From positions 1-39,889 of the forward strand of contig NIVC01003493.1 in assembly GCA_002269645.1 (NCBI GenBank): a DNA stretch of 39,889 nucleotides, written 5' to 3'. The DNA comes from Macrostomum lignano (taxonomy: Eukaryota). A program made the translations under genes and the position numbers. The notes beneath the pieces were generated by a model that was given only the letters and a program-made list of their open reading frames with translations, ran no database searches and was not told where the DNA came from. Below, one piece after another: positions 191 to 10,597 of the stretch (its first letter is position 1; each line of letters opens with the position of its first letter).

Positions 191-350
191 AATTTCCGAG
201 TAGAGAGGGAAGGGATTCTATTGGTCGAGCAAGCATTTGAAGTGATTTCCGAGTAAAATGTGGAGAATGGATTCTATTGGTCGAGAGGTCCCTGATGAAC
301 GATTTGGTTTGGACCCTGCGGGAGAAGGGCTCCAGTACCCTTTATAAATA
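191..350 (+). promoter_or_regulatory. Putative Pol II promoter of the pPolB gene: duplicated CCAAT module plus TATA box
   Basis: GGATTCTATTGGTCGAG (ATTGG = reverse CCAAT) occurs at 213-229 and 269-285, each preceded by ATTTCCGAGTA. TATAAATA at 343-350; ATG at 411. Confidence 0.5.
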
Positions 351-410
351 AAGCACCTCGGCCCCATAGATTTTTTATTTATTTTAGATTAAATTAAAAA
401 TACAACGAAA

Positions 411-1177
411 ATGCAAATAACTTGCGACTTTTGCGAGTCATCAGTAATCGGGGGCATTGAGGAGCACTATGCGGTATGTCCTGCGATACCAGCACTGTTT
501 GAGTCAGATGACTCCCAGCGATTCATTTTCAACTGATCAAGGAGGCGTTTAATGGCAGGTCCCAACTTTACCGGGCCAGTGCATGCGGCGACCGATGAAT
601 GTTTTGGAAAACACTCGTCAAGCTTTCATTGACTTGATCACCCAGCATCAACGTGAGCCAGGAACCGCCATCAAAGTTCAGCTGCGCCTCGGGGTCCTGA
701 TGCAGCGCATCATTAATGGTAGCTGCGCCGCCGAGAACACTGCCTGGTTTGCTGCCAAGGTCCACTCTCTTCTCCAGAGTGAGGAGGAGTATACTTCTCT
801 GACGACATGCAGACTATCCTCAACCGGATAGAGAAGTAACTACGCAATGGCAGTGGCTGGGTAATCAGGACCACTCGGTGTGTTGACGTGTCAACCGCAA
901 GTTATTATCTACCGCATAGAGCGTCGTGCAAAAGGCCAAGAATGAGTTCAAGAAAGACTGCAACAAGCTGCTAAACAACTCCCTGTAGACCATCGAGTAT
1001 GTTCGCAAGCAAGTGGACTACGTGCTGGTTTATTCAGCAGGGAAGCCTGTGGCCCAGCCGACGTTCCGCGATCAGATGATTTTCAACGGGGATTTAGCTC
1101 TAGTGCACATTCTCAAGACGAATGTTGTGCTCGACAGGCTAGTGTATATCGGCCAGTGCGATCTGTCTGGACACTAG
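411..1177 (+). pseudogene. Internally deleted, frameshifted protein-primed DNA polymerase B (pPolB) remnant
   Basis: Manual translation across frames gives MQITCDFC..EH..C, IKEAFNGRSQLYR, KVQLRLGVLM and RNGSGWVIR (the SGW motif of the Polinton polB N-terminal region). These abut AKNEFKKDCNKLLNNSL*TIEYVRKQVD...QPTFRDQMIFNGDLALVHILKTNVVLDRLVYIG, a decayed polB motif-B region (consensus [27 protein letters not shown]). Exonuclease, motif A and the YxDTDS motif C are absent. Confidence 0.85.
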
Positions 1178-1685: not shown

Positions 1686-1789
1686 AGGCTAGAAACGCTA
1701 AATCCGCAGAAACTGGTGGGGTGGCAGTATTTTTTTTTTCAAGCAGGTGTTTGGCATAAGAAAATGATAGGTACTAGAAATTTGGTAAA

Positions 1790-3008
1790 ATGAAAAAGAA
1801 AAAGGCAATTTCAAACCTTCTGCCAGGTATTTATTTTGACTGCAGTAGACCGGGCAGCTATGGCGGCTATCAGGCATTAAAACGAGAGTTGCACAAACAG
1901 CACGGACCCAAGTTTAGTGTAGGGCAGGTATGTATATACGATATACTTCTAAACCAATGATTTTTTAGAAAATTCCAGCTTAGGTTTTTAGTTTTATCCA
2001 CTAGCTAGCAATTTCCAGTTTTTACAATTAAAGGTAAAAACGTGGCTCCAAGACCAAGATGTCTACACACTGCATAGAGATAAACGCAAAAACTTTCGTC
2101 GAGCACCGATTGTGGTGCGGGGCATGGATGACCAGTGGGAACTGGACCTGGTTGAAATGCTACCGTTTGCCAAGTACAATGGCGGCGTACGATATATTTT
2201 ATGCTGCATTGATGTGCTCAGCAAGTTTGCCTGGGCTCAGCCGGTGCGCCGCAAGACAGCCGAGGAGGTTGCAGCCGGATTCGAAGCGATCCTAAATCGA
2301 GCTCACCCTCGATGCCCACGAGCAGTTCGGACCGACCGTGGAAAAGAGTTTTGTAACACCCAGTTCCGAGCCCTCTGCGTAAACCACAAAATTCATGCAT
2401 TCACATCAAGTAGTGACCAGAAATGCGCAGTCATTGAGAGATGGAACCGCACACTGAAATCCCGAATGTGGCGGTACTTCCGTCACAAGTCAACATTAAC
2501 CTGGACCGATGTGCTTCAACCCTTAGCAAAGGCATACAACCAGAGTATTCATCGGAGTATTCAAAGCCGACCAGTTGATGTCGACAAGTCAAACGAGATG
2601 GAAATTTGGCACCGGCTTTACGATGGGAAGCTTCCTGAGACTCGTGAAAAGGTCTCCAGACCAAAGTTCAAGGCAGGAATGATGGTGCGAATCTCTCTTC
2701 GCAATCTGGCCAACCCATTCACCAAGGGATACACAAGGGGATGGAGTGAGGAAGTATTTGAAGTCAAGTCCCTCCACCCCAAGCATTATCCATACATGTA
2801 CACTCTGATCGATGCCCGAGGTGAAGAGTTGGAAGGCAAGTTTTACGAGCCGGAAATGCAGCAAGTGACAGGAAACAAGAAGCTGTGGATCATCGACAAG
2901 GTTCTCAACATTAAGAAGCTGAAGAGTGGAAAGATTCGGTATTTGGTTCAGTGGCGCGATTCAGAAAAACCCAGTTGGATTGACGAAAAAGACTTAAGAA
3001 AAATATGA
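1790..3008 (+). CDS. Polinton retroviral-like (rve/DDE) integrase with C-terminal chromodomain; join(1790..1927,2034..3008), ~370 aa
   Basis: Exon 2 has DDQWELDL, CIDVLSKFAW, RTDRGKEF and IERWNRTLK (DDE intact) and the chromodomain-like IIDKVL...RYLVQW. Exon 1 (MKKKK...YFDCSRPGSYGGYQAL) is the usual Maverick integrase N-terminus and joins in phase 0 via CAG|GTATGT...TTAAAG|GTA to VKTWLQDQDVYTLH. Confidence 0.9.
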
Positions 3009-3785
3009 AAAGGCAAAGATTTCAGGTAATGTCCGGCCCCGATGATGACCCGGCCAACTTTACTGCTGAGCTGCTGCATCCTGTGCTGCTGGATTCTGCT
3101 TTGGACTATGAGTTGGGTCTGCTTGGAATCAGTTTTATCAACTGCATCTACACGATCCCTCATCCATTGTCGCTATATTATCAGCTTGAGGGTTCAATGC
3201 AATGTGCTGAAATTCCAGCTGGGCGCTACAATGACTTGAATGAGCTGATTGATGCAGTAAATGCTTACTGATTGTAAAAGATTTTGATGAGTCTGGAATT
3301 GGCGAAACACCTATAAATGTGCATCTAATTAAATTTACCCTTGATTCAGTTAGCCATTATGTATACTATCAAATGGCTGGGATCTGTGAGAGATTTATGT
3401 TTCCAGAAAACAGCCAGATGGGGAAAATCTTTGGTGCTGCGCAGACAACCTATAGCGAGCAGGCAGGATGCTTTGAACGACCTGGCATGAACCCGGCCTG
3501 GAATACGGATTTGCTGCTTGTTGAGTGCGATCAGATTAGCCCGCGCTGTATTGGAAATCAGTTTACTCCAGCACTGCAGACTTTGAATATTGGTGGTCTT
3601 TTGCAGGTCACCGGTCGGAACTCATCTATAAGAATAAGCTGTTCTTCCCAATAGCAGCAAACCACCGCTTAACACACATGCAAATACGGCTACGACCGAT
3701 CAACTGTATCGAATCTATCCGATTACTCTTTGGACCCACAGTCTTGACTTTTGAGCTGCGTGAGTCATGGACATTCGACAAGTGA
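3005..3785 (+). pseudogene. Polinton minor capsid protein (penton/PX), two apparent 1-bp deletions
   Basis: N-terminus PANFTAELLHPVLLDSALDYELGLLGISF matches the Maverick mCP start. Reading continues after a -1 shift near 3268 (LIVKDFDE...VHLIKFTLD) and a second -1 shift in the T-run at ~3598-3602, into LIYKNKLFFPIAAN..MQIRL...FGPTVLTFELRE, the mCP-like C-terminus. Stop at 3783-3785. Confidence 0.75.
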
Positions 3786-4029
3786 CCGAGTTTTATCGAG
3801 GCAGTTGCTTCAAACTTCCTCATGGGCACGGATATCCCACATCGCTGCTATCTCGACTGCCCCTGAGACTCATGAAAATGCAGTTCTCCTTTCCCGCATA
3901 CCACCTCCATCGCAGAAAAAACATAAGAAAACGCCAAAAATCAAACCAAAGAAGAGCAAGCCAGTGCCCACAAAAAAGCGCAAGATACCGTTAAAAACAG
4001 TCAACCGAGTGCTCGATTCACTCTCATAA
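3767..4029 (+). CDS. Small basic core/DNA-packaging-like protein (PZ-type position), apparently frameshifted
   Basis: Lies between mCP and MCP as in Mavericks. The N-terminus FYRGSCFKLPHGHG resembles the YRG..Q.G.G motif. The Lys-rich tail KKHKKTPKIKPKKSKPVPTKKRK is in the -1 frame and ends at the MCP start. Confidence 0.5.
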
Positions 4030-5300
4030 TGTATCGGACAAATCCACGGCTCAATCTGTTTGAGCCAATGACGCATGAAATTGGAGTGGATAGGTCTCAC
4101 TTCATGGACTTTCATCCCATCGGCAGTCTCACGACTCCTGATGCACCGATTGAATTCAACTGCCATGCCTCCTCTGAGGACTACACCGATCTGCACGCCA
4201 CAGTGCTGCAAGTCACTTGCCGGATAACTCGTGTGATAAACAATGCAGAGCTGACTAATGAAGATGATGCCCATGTCGGACTATCGAATCTCCCGCTTGC
4301 CAGCCTGTTTCGTGATGTCACTGTAAAACTCAACCAGCGGGTTGTGAGTGGTGGGGACCAGCTCTACCCATATCGAGCAATGCTTCAAGTGCTGACCAGC
4401 AGCAATGCCAACCAGCTTCAAGAACTGGCGGCCGCAGGTTATTATCCAGACACCGCTGGAGAGAGTGACACCATTGGGGAGCAAAATCATGGATTCACAA
4501 ATCGTGCGAGATTGCATGAGGCTTCTGCTGTTGTGCAATATGCCGGCCCGTTGTTTTCAGACATTTTCTCAATCCGGCAGTATCTGCTAAACCAAATCAG
4601 CCTGCAGGTCAAATTGACCCGGCACTGCAGCGCTTTTTCGTTGATGGTACCCAATAATGGAGTTCAATACCGTGTTGAAGTCGACAATGCTATTCTGCTT
4701 TTGAGGCGTCTCCGAGTAAACCCAACAGTGGCTCTCGCACATGAACAGGGGCTCTCACAGCGTAATGCTCTCTACCACTTTGATAGAAGAGAGCTTCAGA
4801 CATTCACATTTTCTGTTGGGACAAGAAACAAGAGTCTCGATTCAATCACGCATGGTCAGCTGCCAAAATTTGTGCTCCTTGGAATGGTCAGCCAGACTGC
4901 TTTCAATGGATCTCTGCACCACAACCCGTTTTGGTTCCAAGCATTTGGATTGAATAGTTTAAGCCTGTTTGTCAATGGAGAGCCAATTACTGGGCAGCCC
5001 ATAGAACCACAGCAGCAGCCCTCATCCGAATTTTTGCAGTTTGCCCGCAGTCTCAGTGGAAAATATTGCATAAGCTTTGATGAATTTCGAAATAGTGCCT
5101 ATCTGCTTGCGTTTGACCTTAGTCCAAGTGGCGATGAAGTAGGCAGCTGGTTTGGTCATAGGCAGGGTCAACTACGACTGGATATTCGCTTTTCCAACGC
5201 TCTCGCACAGCCAGTCACACTCATCTGCTTGTGCGTGTATGATTCATGCATGGAAATCACTAAAGAGAGGGATGTGCTGCTGGATTATCGCAGAGCATGA
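4029..5300 (+). CDS. Polinton major capsid protein (double jelly-roll, PY), 423 aa, intact
   Basis: LNLFEP...DFHPIGSLTTPDAPIEF...EDYTDLHAT, NLPLASLFRDVTVKLNQ, YPYRA, GQLPKFVLLGMVSQTAFNGSLHHNPFWFQ, LFAFDLSP-like and GQLRLDIRFSNAL segments follow the Maverick MCP pattern. Confidence 0.9.
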   Translation: MYRTNPRLNLFEPMTHEIGVDRSHFMDFHPIGSLTTPDAPIEFNCHASSEDYTDLHATVLQVTCRITRVINNAELTNEDDAHVGLSNLPLASLFRDVTVKLNQRVVSGGDQLYPYRAMLQVLTSSNANQLQELAAAGYYPDTAGESDTIGEQNHGFTNRARLHEASAVVQYAGPLFSDIFSIRQYLLNQISLQVKLTRHCSAFSLMVPNNGVQYRVEVDNAILLLRRLRVNPTVALAHEQGLSQRNALYHFDRRELQTFTFSVGTRNKSLDSITHGQLPKFVLLGMVSQTAFNGSLHHNPFWFQAFGLNSLSLFVNGEPITGQPIEPQQQPSSEFLQFARSLSGKYCISFDEFRNSAYLLAFDLSPSGDEVGSWFGHRQGQLRLDIRFSNALAQPVTLICLCVYDSCMEITKERDVLLDYRRA

Positions 5301-5770
5301 ATTCCGAAGAGTTGGAAGCGTTCATTTCTCGCTGCCCCACATCTGTGCGGGATGCCTATTGCGGAAATTTTACAGTTGGAACAGTGACACCATTTTTCGA
5401 TTCAACCTGCCGACCCTGCTGCTTCATTTTGTATGAGCCATGGAATGATGAGTGCGGTCACTGGATTGCTGGAGTAGTAACCAGTAAAGTGCATTGTGAA
5501 ATTTTCAACTCTTTGGGAGGCTTGAGTAAAAATATGAAGAGCTGGTTAAAGAAAACTAAACCGACGCGGATGGTGCTACAATGGAATACGGTCCCTGTTC
5601 AGCCCAGTTCGTCAACTCTTTGCGGCTGGTATTGCATTTTTTACTTGATCCATCGACTGCATAAGAGAATGTCATATAATGCCTTGTTCATCAAGGTTTT
5701 GCACCCGGCAGCTGTGGCTCAAAACGATGCAATCATACTCAGACTCAAAAATCAGTTGCAAGGTGTTTGA
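5297..5770 (+). CDS. Adenain-like (peptidase C5) maturation cysteine protease
   Basis: GHW (His), FNSLG (usually FDSxG), VQP (oxyanion Gln) and LCGWYC (Cys) appear in adenain order. Confidence 0.88.
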   Translation: MNSEELEAFISRCPTSVRDAYCGNFTVGTVTPFFDSTCRPCCFILYEPWNDECGHWIAGVVTSKVHCEIFNSLGGLSKNMKSWLKKTKPTRMVLQWNTVPVQPSSSTLCGWYCIFYLIHRLHKRMSYNALFIKVLHPAAVAQNDAIILRLKNQLQGV

Positions 5771-6386
5771 TTCCAGACTGCGGATGGGAGGCTGCATGAT
5801 GGTTTCGGGCCCTTCTCGAGCGGGAAAATCAACATTCTGTTTGCGGTTGCTGTCCCAACGACTGCTTCTGTTCGACCAACCTCCCAAGCGGATGATTTGG
5901 TATCACGGATGCCCGCAGCCGGAACTCCACGCGACTCTGCGGCGGCTAGGAGTGCAAGTATGTGAAGGATTATCGAATTTGGATCTGCAGCCCCATGACC
6001 TGATTGTGATTGACGATTTACTGGATGAAGCAGCTGCAAGTCGAGAGCTACGACATCTGTTCACCCGTGAGGCCCACCACAAGCCCTGCTTTGTCATTCT
6101 CATCACGCAAAATCTATTTTTCAAAGGCAGAGAGTGGCGCACAATTAGCATAAATTGCACCTACATGGTGTTGTTCAACAACCCCAGAGACACCTCTGCG
6201 GTCCAAGCTTTAAGTCAGCAATGCTTTCCCAAACGGCGCACTCTGCTAGTAGAACTGATGGATCGATTGGTGCGAGATGGAGATCAGCGCTATCTGCTGC
6301 TTGATTTTCACCCCGCTTCACCCCATGAACTGCGCCTGAGAGCCAATTTTCTCCCCGATGAGGCCCCGCAGCGAGTTTATCTATAA
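5727..6386 (+). CDS. A32/FtsK-like DNA packaging ATPase
   Basis: Walker A GPSRAGKS, Walker B LIVIDDL, FTREAHH, ILITQNLF and RTISINCTYMVLFNNPRD. Start is uncertain (ATG 5727, GTG 5763 or ATG 5784). Confidence 0.92.
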   Translation: MQSYSDSKISCKVFDSRLRMGGCMMVSGPSRAGKSTFCLRLLSQRLLLFDQPPKRMIWYHGCPQPELHATLRRLGVQVCEGLSNLDLQPHDLIVIDDLLDEAAASRELRHLFTREAHHKPCFVILITQNLFFKGREWRTISINCTYMVLFNNPRDTSAVQALSQQCFPKRRTLLVELMDRLVRDGDQRYLLLDFHPASPHELRLRANFLPDEAPQRVYL

Positions 6387-6416
6387 GAATGGCTCAGTCT
6401 CTGCACTGAGTTAAAC

Positions 6417-6749
6417 ATGGATAAACACATTGCACTAATAACTGTCTTTTGTGAGGGCACTATATCCTTGCGTCGCTGCATACTTACCTATGCAAATAAA
6501 AGCACCATTTGCTTTTTGGTCGAGTGTATTATCAACTTACTAGCAGGAAAAGTTGGCTGTGAAGATAGCTTGAAGCGGAGACTCAGGCGATATCGAAATA
6601 CTCTCCGGCTTGTTGCACAAAGCAAAAGTGTGAAAGAGGCTCGGCGTAATCTCTCACACCCGCATATCCTTCGTTGTCTTCCTCTGATTCTCACCTATAT
6701 AAAAAGACATGTACAAGGAAATGATACTGGTACCCCGGTTGCAGTATGA
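6417..6749 (+). CDS. Conserved small Maverick protein (PW/PZ class, putative virion core protein)
   Basis: Pattern R..IL..A....I..LVECIINLLAGKV.....KRRLRRYRNTLR.VA is recalled from Maverick small ORFs. Position next to the ATPase is typical. Confidence 0.6.
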   Translation: MDKHIALITVFCEGTISLRRCILTYANKSTICFLVECIINLLAGKVGCEDSLKRRLRRYRNTLRLVAQSKSVKEARRNLSHPHILRCLPLILTYIKRHVQGNDTGTPVAV

Positions 6750-7305
6750 GGCACTTGTGAATCAGAGGGGCATGGAGACAGTCTGTGAACCCGAGCTAGA
6801 GGCGGAAAAACAGTTGCGCAAGATTAGGGACGAGCGTTGCGTGCAGCAGCTGCAGGCAAGTGCGACCCAAGAACAGCCTCCAGTAATTCACAAAGAACCG
6901 CAGTGGAAGGAGGTTTTATATCTGACGGTGAATCAGAAATGGCATCATCGTCTGCAGGCATTGATTAGCTTCATAACCGTAAAGTGCAAGTCGATTAGCA
7001 TAGATGATACGTATGAAGTTTCTGTCAATGGTAAACCGTTGTACAACTCAAATATCGTGGACCTGCTGCATTTCATAGTTAAAGATACGTACTCTAAGTA
7101 CCTTCAGCCACCGAATGGGATTAATGAGTTTGTTACGTGTCTTCAAGAAAACCACGTGCCTCTGTCTGCAGTTGGTCTGAACACTACAAAATTGCTGGAA
7201 AAGCCTCGGGAAGAAAAGTCCAGTCCTAAAAAACCTCGACTGCAAGGCTATAAGAAGACTCAGTCTCAGAAAGGATACGGCAAGTGGATCAAGTGGCCAA
7301 GATGA
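6709..7305 (+). CDS. Conserved uncharacterised Maverick protein, 198 aa
   Basis: MILVP start and EVSVNGKPLYNSNIVDLLHF...PPNGINEFVTCLQENHVPLSAVG match the recurrent Maverick pattern G.PI.GSNIVDL...P.G...F...L...NVP...IGN. Confidence 0.65.
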   Translation: MYKEMILVPRLQYEALVNQRGMETVCEPELEAEKQLRKIRDERCVQQLQASATQEQPPVIHKEPQWKEVLYLTVNQKWHHRLQALISFITVKCKSISIDDTYEVSVNGKPLYNSNIVDLLHFIVKDTYSKYLQPPNGINEFVTCLQENHVPLSAVGLNTTKLLEKPREEKSSPKKPRLQGYKKTQSQKGYGKWIKWPR

Positions 7306-7740
7306 TTGTCATTGATTTTGAAGGATTTCCGCACCTCTACAAAACAGAGGACTTTGTGATTAAGGAAATTGCATGGGTTGAGTTTGCATGCGGTCAAACG
7401 ACGGCTCATTACTATTGCTACCAGCCGCCGCACAGCTTTGAGCTCTTTGATAGAGGACAGCGACGAACCTGCTACTGGCTCACCAATAAGCGGCACGGTC
7501 TAGACTGGGACAGGAGTGGGTTCTGACCCTACTCTTGTCTCTGGAGCGATATCTCTCACTTGCAAGGCCCGATATTTAGCAAGGGGGATGTCAAGTGCCA
7601 GTTCCTGTCGCGTCTGCTGCTGCAGCCTGTCTACGACCTCGCACACCTAGCCTTTCCGAGTGCCTCAAAGTACGTGCTACCCTGCGCCCTGGCCAAGGTG
7701 GCGCTGTACGCTGATTGGCTGCGGCCTCGCGGCTACGGGT
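7302..7740 (+). pseudogene. DEDD/DnaQ-like nuclease-fold protein with in-frame TGA at 7524-7526
   Basis: MIVIDFEGF (DxE), FVIKEIA, QPP, WLTNKRHGLDW, then in the same frame after the stop PY..L, IFSKGDVK, VYDL and CALAKV..YADWL. This pattern recurs in Polinton accessory ORFs. The 3' end is uncertain. Confidence 0.65.
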
Positions 7741-7741
7741 C

Positions 7742-7749
7742 TATAAAAG
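7742..7749 (+). promoter_or_regulatory. TATA box (TATAAAAG) upstream of TBP-like gene
   Basis: Consensus TATAWAAR, 46 nt before ATG 7795. Confidence 0.5.
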
Positions 7750-7794
7750 TAGCGATCTGCAGCAGGCACTGGCGTTTCTCTCGATTGTCTAAAG

Positions 7795-8395
7795 ATGGTC
7801 GCAACAATTCGCGTGACAAACATCGTGACAGGAGCCGACCTGGCGACCCGGGTGGGTCTGCCTCAACTAGTGAATTTCCTGACTCTTCATCTGCCTCAGT
7901 ATCACACAATCCGCCATCGCCTGGTTCATCCTCGAACACTGGCAGTGGTGATGAAGAGCGGGCAGCATCGAGTAACCGCGCTGGTGTATCCGACCGGACA
8001 AGTGTCTGTCTGTGGAGCCAAAAGCATGGAGGAAGCTCTCGCAGAGACGGAGAAGATTGTGAAGCTGTGTGCGGACTTCTTGCGATTGACCAGTCTGCCC
8101 CAGATTCGCATCAAGACTATTACCTCTGTGACGGCCTTTCCCGCGGGTCGGCATCCACTCCGGTTGGGGGAAGTCAAGTCTAAATGGCCGCATCGGGCCA
8201 CCTATGAGCCGGAAATGTTTAACGGACTTGTGCTCGAGTTTACTGCCTCTGTAAAAGTTGATTTTGTTTCATTCGTATCGTTGTATAATAGCTGGTGCTC
8301 GCAGCGTGGTTGAGGCTCAGACTGCAGCTGATGCCCTCTCCCGCATTTTGCTACCAGATCAAGCATCCGAACCTACTTTGCTGGACTCTGACTGA
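7795..8395 (+). CDS. TATA-binding-protein (TBP)-like protein, ~199 aa after correcting one +1 frameshift at the A-run 8253-8256
   Basis: Repeat 1: VTNIVTGADL and VTALVYPTGQVSVCGAKSMEEA (cf. TBP [32 protein letters not shown]). Repeat 2: PLRL and TYEPEMFNGL (cf. SYEPELFPGL), continuing in the +1 frame as LILFHSYRCIIAGARSVVEAQTAADALSRIL (cf. LLIFVSGKVVLTGAK...A...I..IL). Stop TGA 8393-8395. Confidence 0.88.
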
Positions 8396-8831: not shown

Positions 8832-9377
8832 TTAATTGACGAAATGACCAGTTGTCGCTTCATGCATTGCGCGTCGCTTCATTGGTGGCTGGTGGAATGA
8901 AGGCTGTTGGTTCTTCTCAGCTGTTGGTGGCTCTTCCAGAGTTTCGAATGTAAATCTCTTTCTAAATTCAGCCTGAACTGCTTGGAAGGCCCCCCAGTGG
9001 TCGTCCCAATCTGCCGACTGCCTGTCAGGTACTTGCATCAGTTGGTCGAGCGTAAGCCTTGCTGCCCATGCTGAACACTTCAGATTCCGTAGGGTGGTAT
9101 CCCATGGATCGCCGATCGGTGGCTCGACCGGAGGCTCTCGCTTGTCATTTTGTCTAGGACCCATTGCTTTTGAGCCCAGACTTCGCGCCAAAGTGTAGTA
9201 GGAAGCGGTAAGGCGTGCCTTAGGTGCACCGGCGGTCCGAGTACAGTTGGAAGGCGCCAGAGTGTGATTACGCCATTTTGCACAACCACTTGCCTGTTGC
9301 CACCCAGAAGGCATTGCGCATCGATACACTTTCTTGCAAACTCTTCCAGTCGTTCCTTCAGGCTGCCCAAGTGGCAA
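8832..9377 (-). CDS. Hypothetical protein overlapping the PC4-like ORF; start uncertain
   Basis: Open frame of 181 codons ending just before the AT-rich terminator region; no recognisable motif. Confidence 0.3.
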   Translation of the reverse strand: MPLGQPEGTTGRVCKKVYRCAMPSGWQQASGCAKWRNHTLAPSNCTRTAGAPKARLTASYYTLARSLGSKAMGPRQNDKREPPVEPPIGDPWDTTLRNLKCSAWAARLTLDQLMQVPDRQSADWDDHWGAFQAVQAEFRKRFTFETLEEPPTAEKNQQPSFHQPPMKRRAMHEATTGHFVN

Positions 9378-9517
9378 AACTGGTGGACGGTGAGCTCCAT
9401 GCCAGGCAGACCTGGTCGATACTCTTCATCAAATTTGTACCACTTTCTGATGCTGATGCACTTCGAGTGCGACCTGACGCCGATTCGAAATCTGTTCGAT
9501 AATGTCTTGAAGTTCAT
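9080..9517 (-). CDS. PC4/Sub1 (transcriptional coactivator p15)-like ssDNA-binding protein, 145 aa, possibly two tandem PC4-like repeats
   Basis: CISIRKWYKFDEEYRPGLPGMELTVHQFCHLGSLKERLEE aligns to PC4 [39 protein letters not shown] (IxIRxW/Y...PGxxGxxLxxxQ(W/F)xxL). TATATAA lies on the minus strand at 9563-9557, 40 nt upstream of ATG 9517. Confidence 0.7.
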   Translation of the reverse strand: MNFKTLSNRFRIGVRSHSKCISIRKWYKFDEEYRPGLPGMELTVHQFCHLGSLKERLEEFARKCIDAQCLLGGNRQVVVQNGVITLWRLPTVLGPPVHLRHALPLPTTLWREVWAQKQWVLDKMTSESLRSSHRSAIHGIPPYGI

Positions 9518-10399: not shown

Positions 10400-10597
10400 G
10401 GGGTCGGGGGTGGGTGCGTGGGTTTGGGGTCGGGATTGGGTGCGTGGCGGTGGTGGGTTTGGGGTCGGGGTGGGTTTGGGGGTCGGGGTGGGTTTGGCGT
10501 CGGGGTGGGCGTCTTCGGGGCGCCCTCTCCCCTCATTGGCCGGGTGCCCCGGCCAATCCCGTGCGATGGCGGTAGAGGGTACCACTTTCCTACTACT
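10400..10597. repeat. Outer part of right terminal inverted repeat with hairpin and (ACT)n terminus
   Basis: G-tract-rich stretch, perfect stem ATTGGCCGGG-TGC-CCCGGCCAAT (10535-10557) and terminal TACTACT. The next 6 bp (CACCGG) would be the target-site duplication. Confidence 0.65.

Follow-up and report, generated by a model that had tools for sequence, protein, structure and literature searches.

A divergent TATA-binding protein encoded by a Macrostomum lignano Polinton, and a TAAGAA box that it may read

What switches on the capsid genes of integrated Polintons, and whether these elements pass through a virus-like late phase in animals, is an open question. It is raised by a Polinton of the flatworm Macrostomum lignano that encodes a divergent TATA-binding protein (TBP) and carries a recurrent TAAGAA box upstream of its virion genes. 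We analysed a stretch of 39,889 nucleotides from this genome (contig NIVC01003493.1; hereafter the window), for which a preliminary description had suggested a viral TBP of altered specificity or a decoy acting on host initiation. The Polinton takes up the first 10.6 kb, and the window holds its right end only, at 10597. Beyond the element, positions 15549-38800 contain host genes with introns full of 8-42 nt tandem repeats; presumably these are short-chain dehydrogenase-like, bromodomain and BAH-like exons.

The element is one of many in this genome that carry a TBP gene. An own-genome search gave at least 151 TBP matches (150 of 190 candidates were scored), and among the matches listed are about 40 near-identical copies of family A, to which the window element belongs, and about 110 copies of a second family, B, at 37-48% identity. 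TBPs of the two families are 31-41% identical. The window element has the order PolB remnant, integrase, minor and major capsid, protease, ATPase, two accessory genes, exonuclease-like gene and TBP, with a PC4-like gene on the opposite strand:

411..1177, + strand: N-terminal remnant of a protein-primed PolB; the catalytic part is missing here and present in sister C114
1790..3008, + strand: rve integrase (PF00665, E 1.7e-13) with a predicted GT-AG intron at 1928-2033
3005..3785, + strand: gene that we take, from motifs and position, to encode the minor capsid protein; in pieces in the window copy
ATG at 3767, + strand: small basic gene
4029..5300, + strand: presumed major capsid protein, with no Pfam match
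5297..5770, + strand: cysteine protease (Peptidase_C48, E 0.0085, below cut-off), overlapping the capsid stop and with no box of its own
5784..6386, + strand: packaging ATPase (AAA-type matches below cut-off), 45% identical to that of family B
6417..7305, + strand: two conserved, overlapping accessory genes of 110 and 198 aa, with a box before the first alone
7302..7751, + strand: gene that we take to be DEDD-type exonuclease-like (no Pfam match), with an in-frame stop at 7524-7526 in the window copy
7795..8395, + strand: two-repeat TBP-like gene (PF00352; unbroken in sisters; modelled from sister L002), with a frameshift at 8253-8256 in the window copy
8832..9517, - strand: PC4-like gene (PF02229, E 2.5e-5, just below cut-off), its 3' part frameshifted in the window copy
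10580..10597, - strand: outer end of the right terminal inverted repeat, an 18-mer identical at both ends of seven sisters

Labels for the capsid, protease and ATPase set come from motifs and gene order, as the protease and ATPase matches lie below cut-off and the capsid has no Pfam match. The 198-aa accessory protein gave no usable match in the Atlas. Sister C114 carries a protein-primed PolB (PF03175, E 2.1e-12), and the window element is a PolB-deleted derivative. Such PolB-deleted family-A copies (C738, C255, C176, C2126 and C1131) have spread with intact ends and target duplications, which suggests that they moved in trans; a long PolB ORF persists in C114. Seven sister elements at different sites are flanked by 6-bp duplications, exact in six and with one mismatch in one. 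The integrase intron (phase 0) was predicted from reading frames and splice sites. Family B reads through without an intron, and the contig sets covering 1928-2033 gave no splicing (two run unspliced; contigs are uninformative on transcription and start sites).

Gene order from capsid to TBP is the same in family B, with PolB facing it. In the window element and in all but one of 13 other mapped elements, drawn from both families (C110, C530 and C136 included), the TBP gene follows the exonuclease-like gene. The PC4-like gene is also present in both families, but at opposite element ends. In both families the exonuclease-like ORF has an open tail of low complexity (window 7527-8183), which shares 330-390 nt with the TBP ORF in another frame. 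Apparent exonuclease-TBP fusions (L022-L024, L028 and P0008) have differing junctions, and we regard them as indel errors or mutations and not as a programmed product.

The window copy of the TBP gene is, as assembled, split by an indel in a run of A. Its first ORF (7795-8313, 172 aa) matches PF00352 at E 3.5e-13 (Pfam), and the rest of repeat 2 is encoded in frame at 8255-8395, with a weak match to the end of the PF00352 model. The preliminary description had read the 172-aa ORF as a truncated TBP and had proposed that removing one A from the run at 8253-8256 would give a complete two-repeat protein of about 199 aa. Sister copies bear this out. Across its 600 nt the gene departs from L002 and L003, two sisters, at the A run and nowhere else; of the 29 family-A sister loci fetched, 17 carry the ORF unbroken, at 198-216 aa and mostly 199 aa; and L002 as it stands in the genome matches PF00352 in two stretches (68.2 bits against a cut-off of 22.9; E 5.6e-19). 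Searches and folds were run on natural reading frames. In four of four sequencing runs, the break is absent from the main contigs. A real mutation and an assembly slip at 8253-8256 look alike here because contigs drop rare variants; the break is private to the window copy or an assembly slip, and more indels elsewhere in the element, relative to the same runs, lean toward a slip.

Could the gene be a recent, functionless copy of host TBP? The window TBP is broken as assembled, which is the one point in favour of this reading, and we give it almost no credence. The element protein is only 25% identical to host TBP, and grouping with host TBP was rejected by an AU test (p 0.0048, 27 rows). The gene recurs in sister elements of two families, with the at least 151 matches noted above. 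Across eight family-B copies, dN/dS is 0.06-0.31 wherever dS is computable (not saturated), and thus under 0.32; pN/pS is about 0.4 across ten family-A copies. By these ratios, the Polinton TBP gene is under purifying selection. Relatives of the family A or B TBP at 46-75% identity are present in ENA, Logan and JGI records. Together, identity, the AU test, copy number, dN/dS and relatives refute a recent host retrocopy, and on this sequence evidence the TBP gene is old and selected.

Trees place the Polinton TBPs on one side of a long branch, with support of 99/100 in a 69-row tree (every third of 115 cellular matches plus 15 of 80 archaeal loci) and 100/100 in a 27-row tree. Of the groups against which the preliminary description had proposed to place the gene, host TBP is rejected as above, grouping with TRF2 is not rejected (AU p 0.09, 27 rows), and giant-virus TBPs were left out of both trees and of the AU test. 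We detected no TBP relatives in the viral contigs searched and none by alignment search in metagenome contigs; one other match in metagenome contigs was a spliced cellular TBP and hence false. A profile search of representatives returned mostly cellular TBPs, a bias that we attribute to the host row in the query alignment; the best 150 of 8273 matches were considered, and distant Polinton TBPs may lie below these. In family B, L031 has a recombination boundary near 5085, within the TBP gene: repeat 1 goes with the virion module (dS 0.02-0.74), and repeat 2 and PolB are saturated between copies.

The encoded protein is predicted to fold as a TBP. A model of sister L002, built from an 11-row alignment, has pLDDT 89.7 and TBP topology, with ten strands and four helices. 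Foldseek with this model returned TBP structures at E 1e-12 to 1e-9. The best 40 PDB matches listed were all TBP-containing entries (TM 0.64-0.72), and giant-virus TBPs at 11-18% identity were among the ten best structural matches in BFVD. The TBP family match and fold that the preliminary description had anticipated were thus both recovered.

The predicted DNA-reading face departs from that of cellular TBP in a consistent way. We mapped residues with the yeast contact list in Table 1 of PMC12529657 (accessible part) and compared 12 Polinton sequences. In 12 of 12, N69, V71, T112, L114, F190, F207, E186 and E188 are invariant. All 12 share F116Y, T124C, Q158K, N159T and V203K, together with V122S/T, V161T/S and P191N/S/T. 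Canonical TBP has four intercalating Phe; here there are two Phe (F190 and F207, which are F142 and F158 of the element protein), one Tyr (F116, now Y65) and one residue that is non-aromatic or shifted. This last, the F99 position, is non-Phe in either of two alignments, although its register is unsure (L49 or P46). Of the two central Asn, N69 is kept as N9 and N159 is Thr in all 12 (T108). The pair of glutamates that binds TFIIB in canonical TBP, E186 and E188, is likewise kept in 12 of 12, as E138 and E140 in an E138-P-E140 stirrup. The preliminary description had already noted the retained Phe of repeat 2, the changed Phe of repeat 1 and the loss of the second Asn only, and our mapping agrees, with the caveat on F99.

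Cellular TBP (PF00352), host TBP (L045) and a host TRF2-like protein (L046) share with the element TBP the two-repeat saddle, N69, V71, L114, F190, F207 and E186/E188. Unlike cellular TBP, the element protein also lacks an N-terminal extension, lies inside a mobile element and has a repeat-1 stirrup that is shrunk, in the L002 model, to a two-residue turn. Since the same substitutions persist over very long branches, they suggest a rewired surface and not decay. These comparisons and the model support a divergent TBP with an altered DNA-reading face.

What might such a surface read? We scanned 42 upstream windows from four elements (the window element and three family-B elements) for k-mers without a seed. 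The top 6-mer was TAAGAA, present in 23 of 42 upstream windows and in 11 of 373 background windows. In its extended form, YWTAAGAA, the box lies in both families at comparable distances upstream of the integrase, minor capsid, basic, major capsid, ATPase, 110/112-aa and exonuclease-like genes. The boxes of the window are the following, with the ordinary TATA-type boxes listed after them:

1755..1762, + strand: CATAAGAA, before the integrase (ATG 1790)
2993..3000, + strand: CTTAAGAA, before the minor capsid gene; a second TAAGA lies at 2912
3627..3634, + strand: TATAAGAA, before the small basic gene (ATG 3767)
3922..3929, + strand: CATAAGAA, before the major capsid gene (ATG 4029); at -102 to -110 in family B
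5660..5667, + strand: CATAAGAG, before the packaging ATPase
6382..6389, + strand: TATAAGAA, before the 110-aa gene (ATG 6417)
7249..7256, + strand: TATAAGAA, before the exonuclease-like gene (ATG 7302)
341..351, + strand: canonical TATA-type box, before the PolB remnant
7742..7749, + strand: canonical TATAAAAG, 53 nt upstream of the TBP start
46 nt upstream of the PC4-like gene, - strand: TATATAAT, from the upstream scan

The 28 boxes aligned follow the pattern C/T, T/A, TAAGA, A: 18 begin with C and the other 10 with T, and T stands at position 2 in 18; a few start positions in the scan and the box alignment are off by 1-3 nt. Position 2 differs between families: A stands there in all but one of the 7 boxes counted in the window, against 0 of 8 in the family-B element C130 (p 0.0014). 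The box falls in different reading frames and yet at homologous places across families whose proteins are 24-57% identical. At the integrase end, where the box precedes the minor capsid gene, family B has the same codons (Leu TTA, Arg AGA). Boxes lie 33-147 nt from the ATG of the starts used, and an out-of-frame ATG follows 5 of the 28 by 4-12 nt. These distances of at least 33 nt and the out-of-frame ATGs fit an element at -30. For the minor capsid gene, an alternative ATG lies just 10 nt past the box. No box precedes 13 of the 42 starts, the C211 integrase among them, and none of the four elements has one before its protease or 198/230-aa gene, each of which overlaps the preceding gene in the window.

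The TAAGA signal is positional and strand-specific. In the core of the window element, TAAGA occurs eight times, always on the sense strand and never more than 150 nt from a start (p 6e-6 at 150 nt, a limit picked after looking at the data, and 0.003 at 100 nt). The TATAAGA 7-mer counted over the whole window is at chance level, with 6 seen and 5.1 expected. TAAGA precedes 29 of 42 starts in TBP-bearing elements and 4 of 23 in Polintons without a TBP, four annotated elements of higher A+T (p 8e-5); for the window alone, the figure is 7 of 12 against the same 4 of 23 (p 0.02). Since the three family-B elements are related, this co-occurrence in effect compares two families that bear a TBP with four elements, from other lineages, that do not. 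The TBP-less class rests on 14 stretches of seven elements of other lineages, in which we found no TBP match. Other AT-rich Polinton families with no detectable TBP (L072-L085) are abundant in the same genome, with 136 and 150 matches.

Not all genes of the element sit behind TAAGAA. In the window (family A), the PolB, PC4-like and TBP genes have ordinary TATA boxes in its place. A TATA box TATAAAAG does start at 7742, where the preliminary description had put it, and TATAAAA precedes TBP in all 28 family-A loci in which an anchor was found. Family B carries CTTAAGAA at the place homologous to window 7742..7749, and its TBP gene lies behind a TAAGAA box in three of three copies. The TATAAAAG at 7742 is more likely a host-read promoter of the TBP gene than a target of the viral TBP.

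We therefore propose an early-to-late switch made of one protein. The element TBP probably binds YWTAAGAA and recruits host TFIIB and Pol II, a reading that we favour on sequence grounds with some reserve. Ordinary TATA boxes would first let host TBP start transcription of PolB and of the PC4-like gene, and in family A also of the TBP gene. The viral TBP would then occupy YWTAAGAA about 30 nt upstream of the start site, its E138-P-E140 stirrup docking host TFIIB, and the protease and 198-aa genes, which overlap their upstream neighbours, would ride on box-driven transcripts. Use of host TFIIB is suggested by the invariant Glu pair and by finding no TFIIB gene in the element. A PF00382 search of the genome, which could miss a very divergent TFIIB, gave 15 matches, none on the listed TBP-bearing contigs, and the two that we inspected are intron-split genes. 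In cellular TBP, P191 favours T at position 1 of the TATA box (PMC12529657, accessible part), and we count its loss in element TBPs, alongside the C at box position 1 in 18 of 28, for the switch.

Some observations pull against the proposed switch. All four wedge Phe are needed in the herpesvirus TBP ORF24 (PMC12529657, accessible part), and the loss of F99 in the element TBP therefore counts against it. A family-B TBP gene behind its own box would need leaky or read-through expression to start. The 13 starts with no box also count against the switch, as do the choice of the 150-nt limit after inspection, the small number of lineages behind the co-occurrence and the minor capsid ATG so close to its box. 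The single changes in some boxes presumably resemble the G(-26) and T(-30) changes of the adenovirus TATA box. Wild-type TBP is listed in the PDB as crystallised on these two variants (1qn5 and 1qna), which suggests that some of the boxes, the TATAAGAA copies at least, may be readable by host TBP.

That point bears on a reading in which host TBP takes the TAAGAA boxes for weak TATA variants and the element TBP is a decoy or repressor, tying up TFIIB or blocking host or early promoters. Crystals of cellular TBP on single-change variants of a similar kind speak for it, as do three window boxes that are one base away from TATAAAA; and TFIIB-type glutamates kept on a protein with a much changed DNA face would suit a TFIIB sink. 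We nevertheless consider it unlikely. Most boxes carry two or three changes, as the counts at positions 1 and 2 imply, box position 2 differs by family, and TBP-less Polintons of the same host lack the enrichment. Moreover, substitutions that are invariant over very long branches would be needless for a mere sink. The divergent TBP with a changed DNA face thus stands from the preliminary description, and its decoy option is the less favoured.

The TBP might also bind DNA for a purpose other than initiation, such as bending the terminal repeats in replication or packaging, with another factor reading the box. Repeat 2 of family B does go with the PolB side, since copies are about 95% identical over the virion module and saturated from inside TBP onward, and ORF24 also affects viral DNA replication (PMC6541308, accessible part). 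A Glu pair invariant in 12 of 12 is hard to explain without a role in initiation, and we identified no other candidate reader of the box in the element, so that we hold such a role to be quite improbable. Baculovirus late promoters have a TAAGA-type initiator, and the TAAGA of these elements could be an initiator used by a helper-virus polymerase or some other factor, unrelated to the TBP gene. The invariant core is indeed just TAAGA(A), and the 33-147 nt to the ATG would be compatible with it. If transcripts began in the box, however, the out-of-frame ATGs 4-12 nt after 5 of the 28 boxes would be decoys, and the intron predicted in the integrase speaks for transcription by Pol II in the nucleus; we rate an initiator as very improbable. 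The switch driven by the element TBP remains the reading that we prefer.

How does the proposed switch compare with known viral solutions? As described in the accessible parts of PMC6541308 and PMC12529657, the TBPs of beta- and gammaherpesviruses (KSHV ORF24, EBV BcRF1 and HCMV UL87) offer a close parallel: these viruses too have no RNA polymerase of their own, a TBP-fold protein with a more polar DNA face and a non-standard TATA box before virion genes. KSHV ORF24 reads TATTWAA late promoters (PMC6541308, accessible part). ORF24, a large protein with a Pol II-binding N-terminal and a DNA-binding C-terminal domain, has all four Phe but no TFIIB glutamates, and it needs five viral partners (PMC6541308 and PMC12529657, accessible parts). 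The Polinton TBP, by contrast, is a bare core of 187-199 aa that keeps the glutamates, is associated with a YWTAAGAA/TAAGAA box and has no partner complex that we could see. It likely resembles ORF24 in mode of action but lies outside the ORF24/BcRF1/UL87 family.

Large DNA viruses also encode divergent TBP folds. According to the accessible part of PMC7221094 (section 11), the Glu pair is the signature of TFIIB binding; in most viral TBPs these positions vary, and the virus supplies a TFIIB of its own. A viral TFIIB accompanies almost every TBP found in large DNA viruses. The Polinton TBP differs from these in keeping the pair, in its 11-18% identity to those among the ten best structural matches, and in that no TFIIB gene was found in the elements. 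By sequence and gene content, it is not part of a viral orthogonal TBP-TFIIB pair. We suggest more tentatively that this may be the smallest late switch known: a 190-aa TBP that reads a private TAAGAA box with a family-specific position 2 would work directly with TFIIB and Pol II of the host, and the element would supply neither of these two nor a co-activator complex.

Our literature search, which did not extend to subscription journals and some supplements, brought up no study that analyses a TBP from a Polinton or the promoter of such a gene. The sole earlier Polinton-related mention found is a figure-legend label in the adintovirus paper (PMC8502044), where 'TBP' marks a TBP-like gene on maps of a Polinton-related MELD virus (PMC8502044, Fig. 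5 legend; bioRxiv 10.1101/697771, legends of Figs. 5 and 6). That entry belongs to a section on non-animal datasets, and the accessible text gives no residue, promoter or mechanism analysis for it; the readable part of the supplement does not mention TBP.

Why would it matter if a Polinton reads its own promoters? If the proposed switch is true, the element TBP would be a natural case of changed specificity combined with continued use of host TFIIB, a design unlike that of the herpesviruses and unlike that of the giant viruses. It would also mean that animal Polintons run a temporal programme. With both the TBP and a matching box carried by the element, the idea is open to direct test in a laboratory flatworm.
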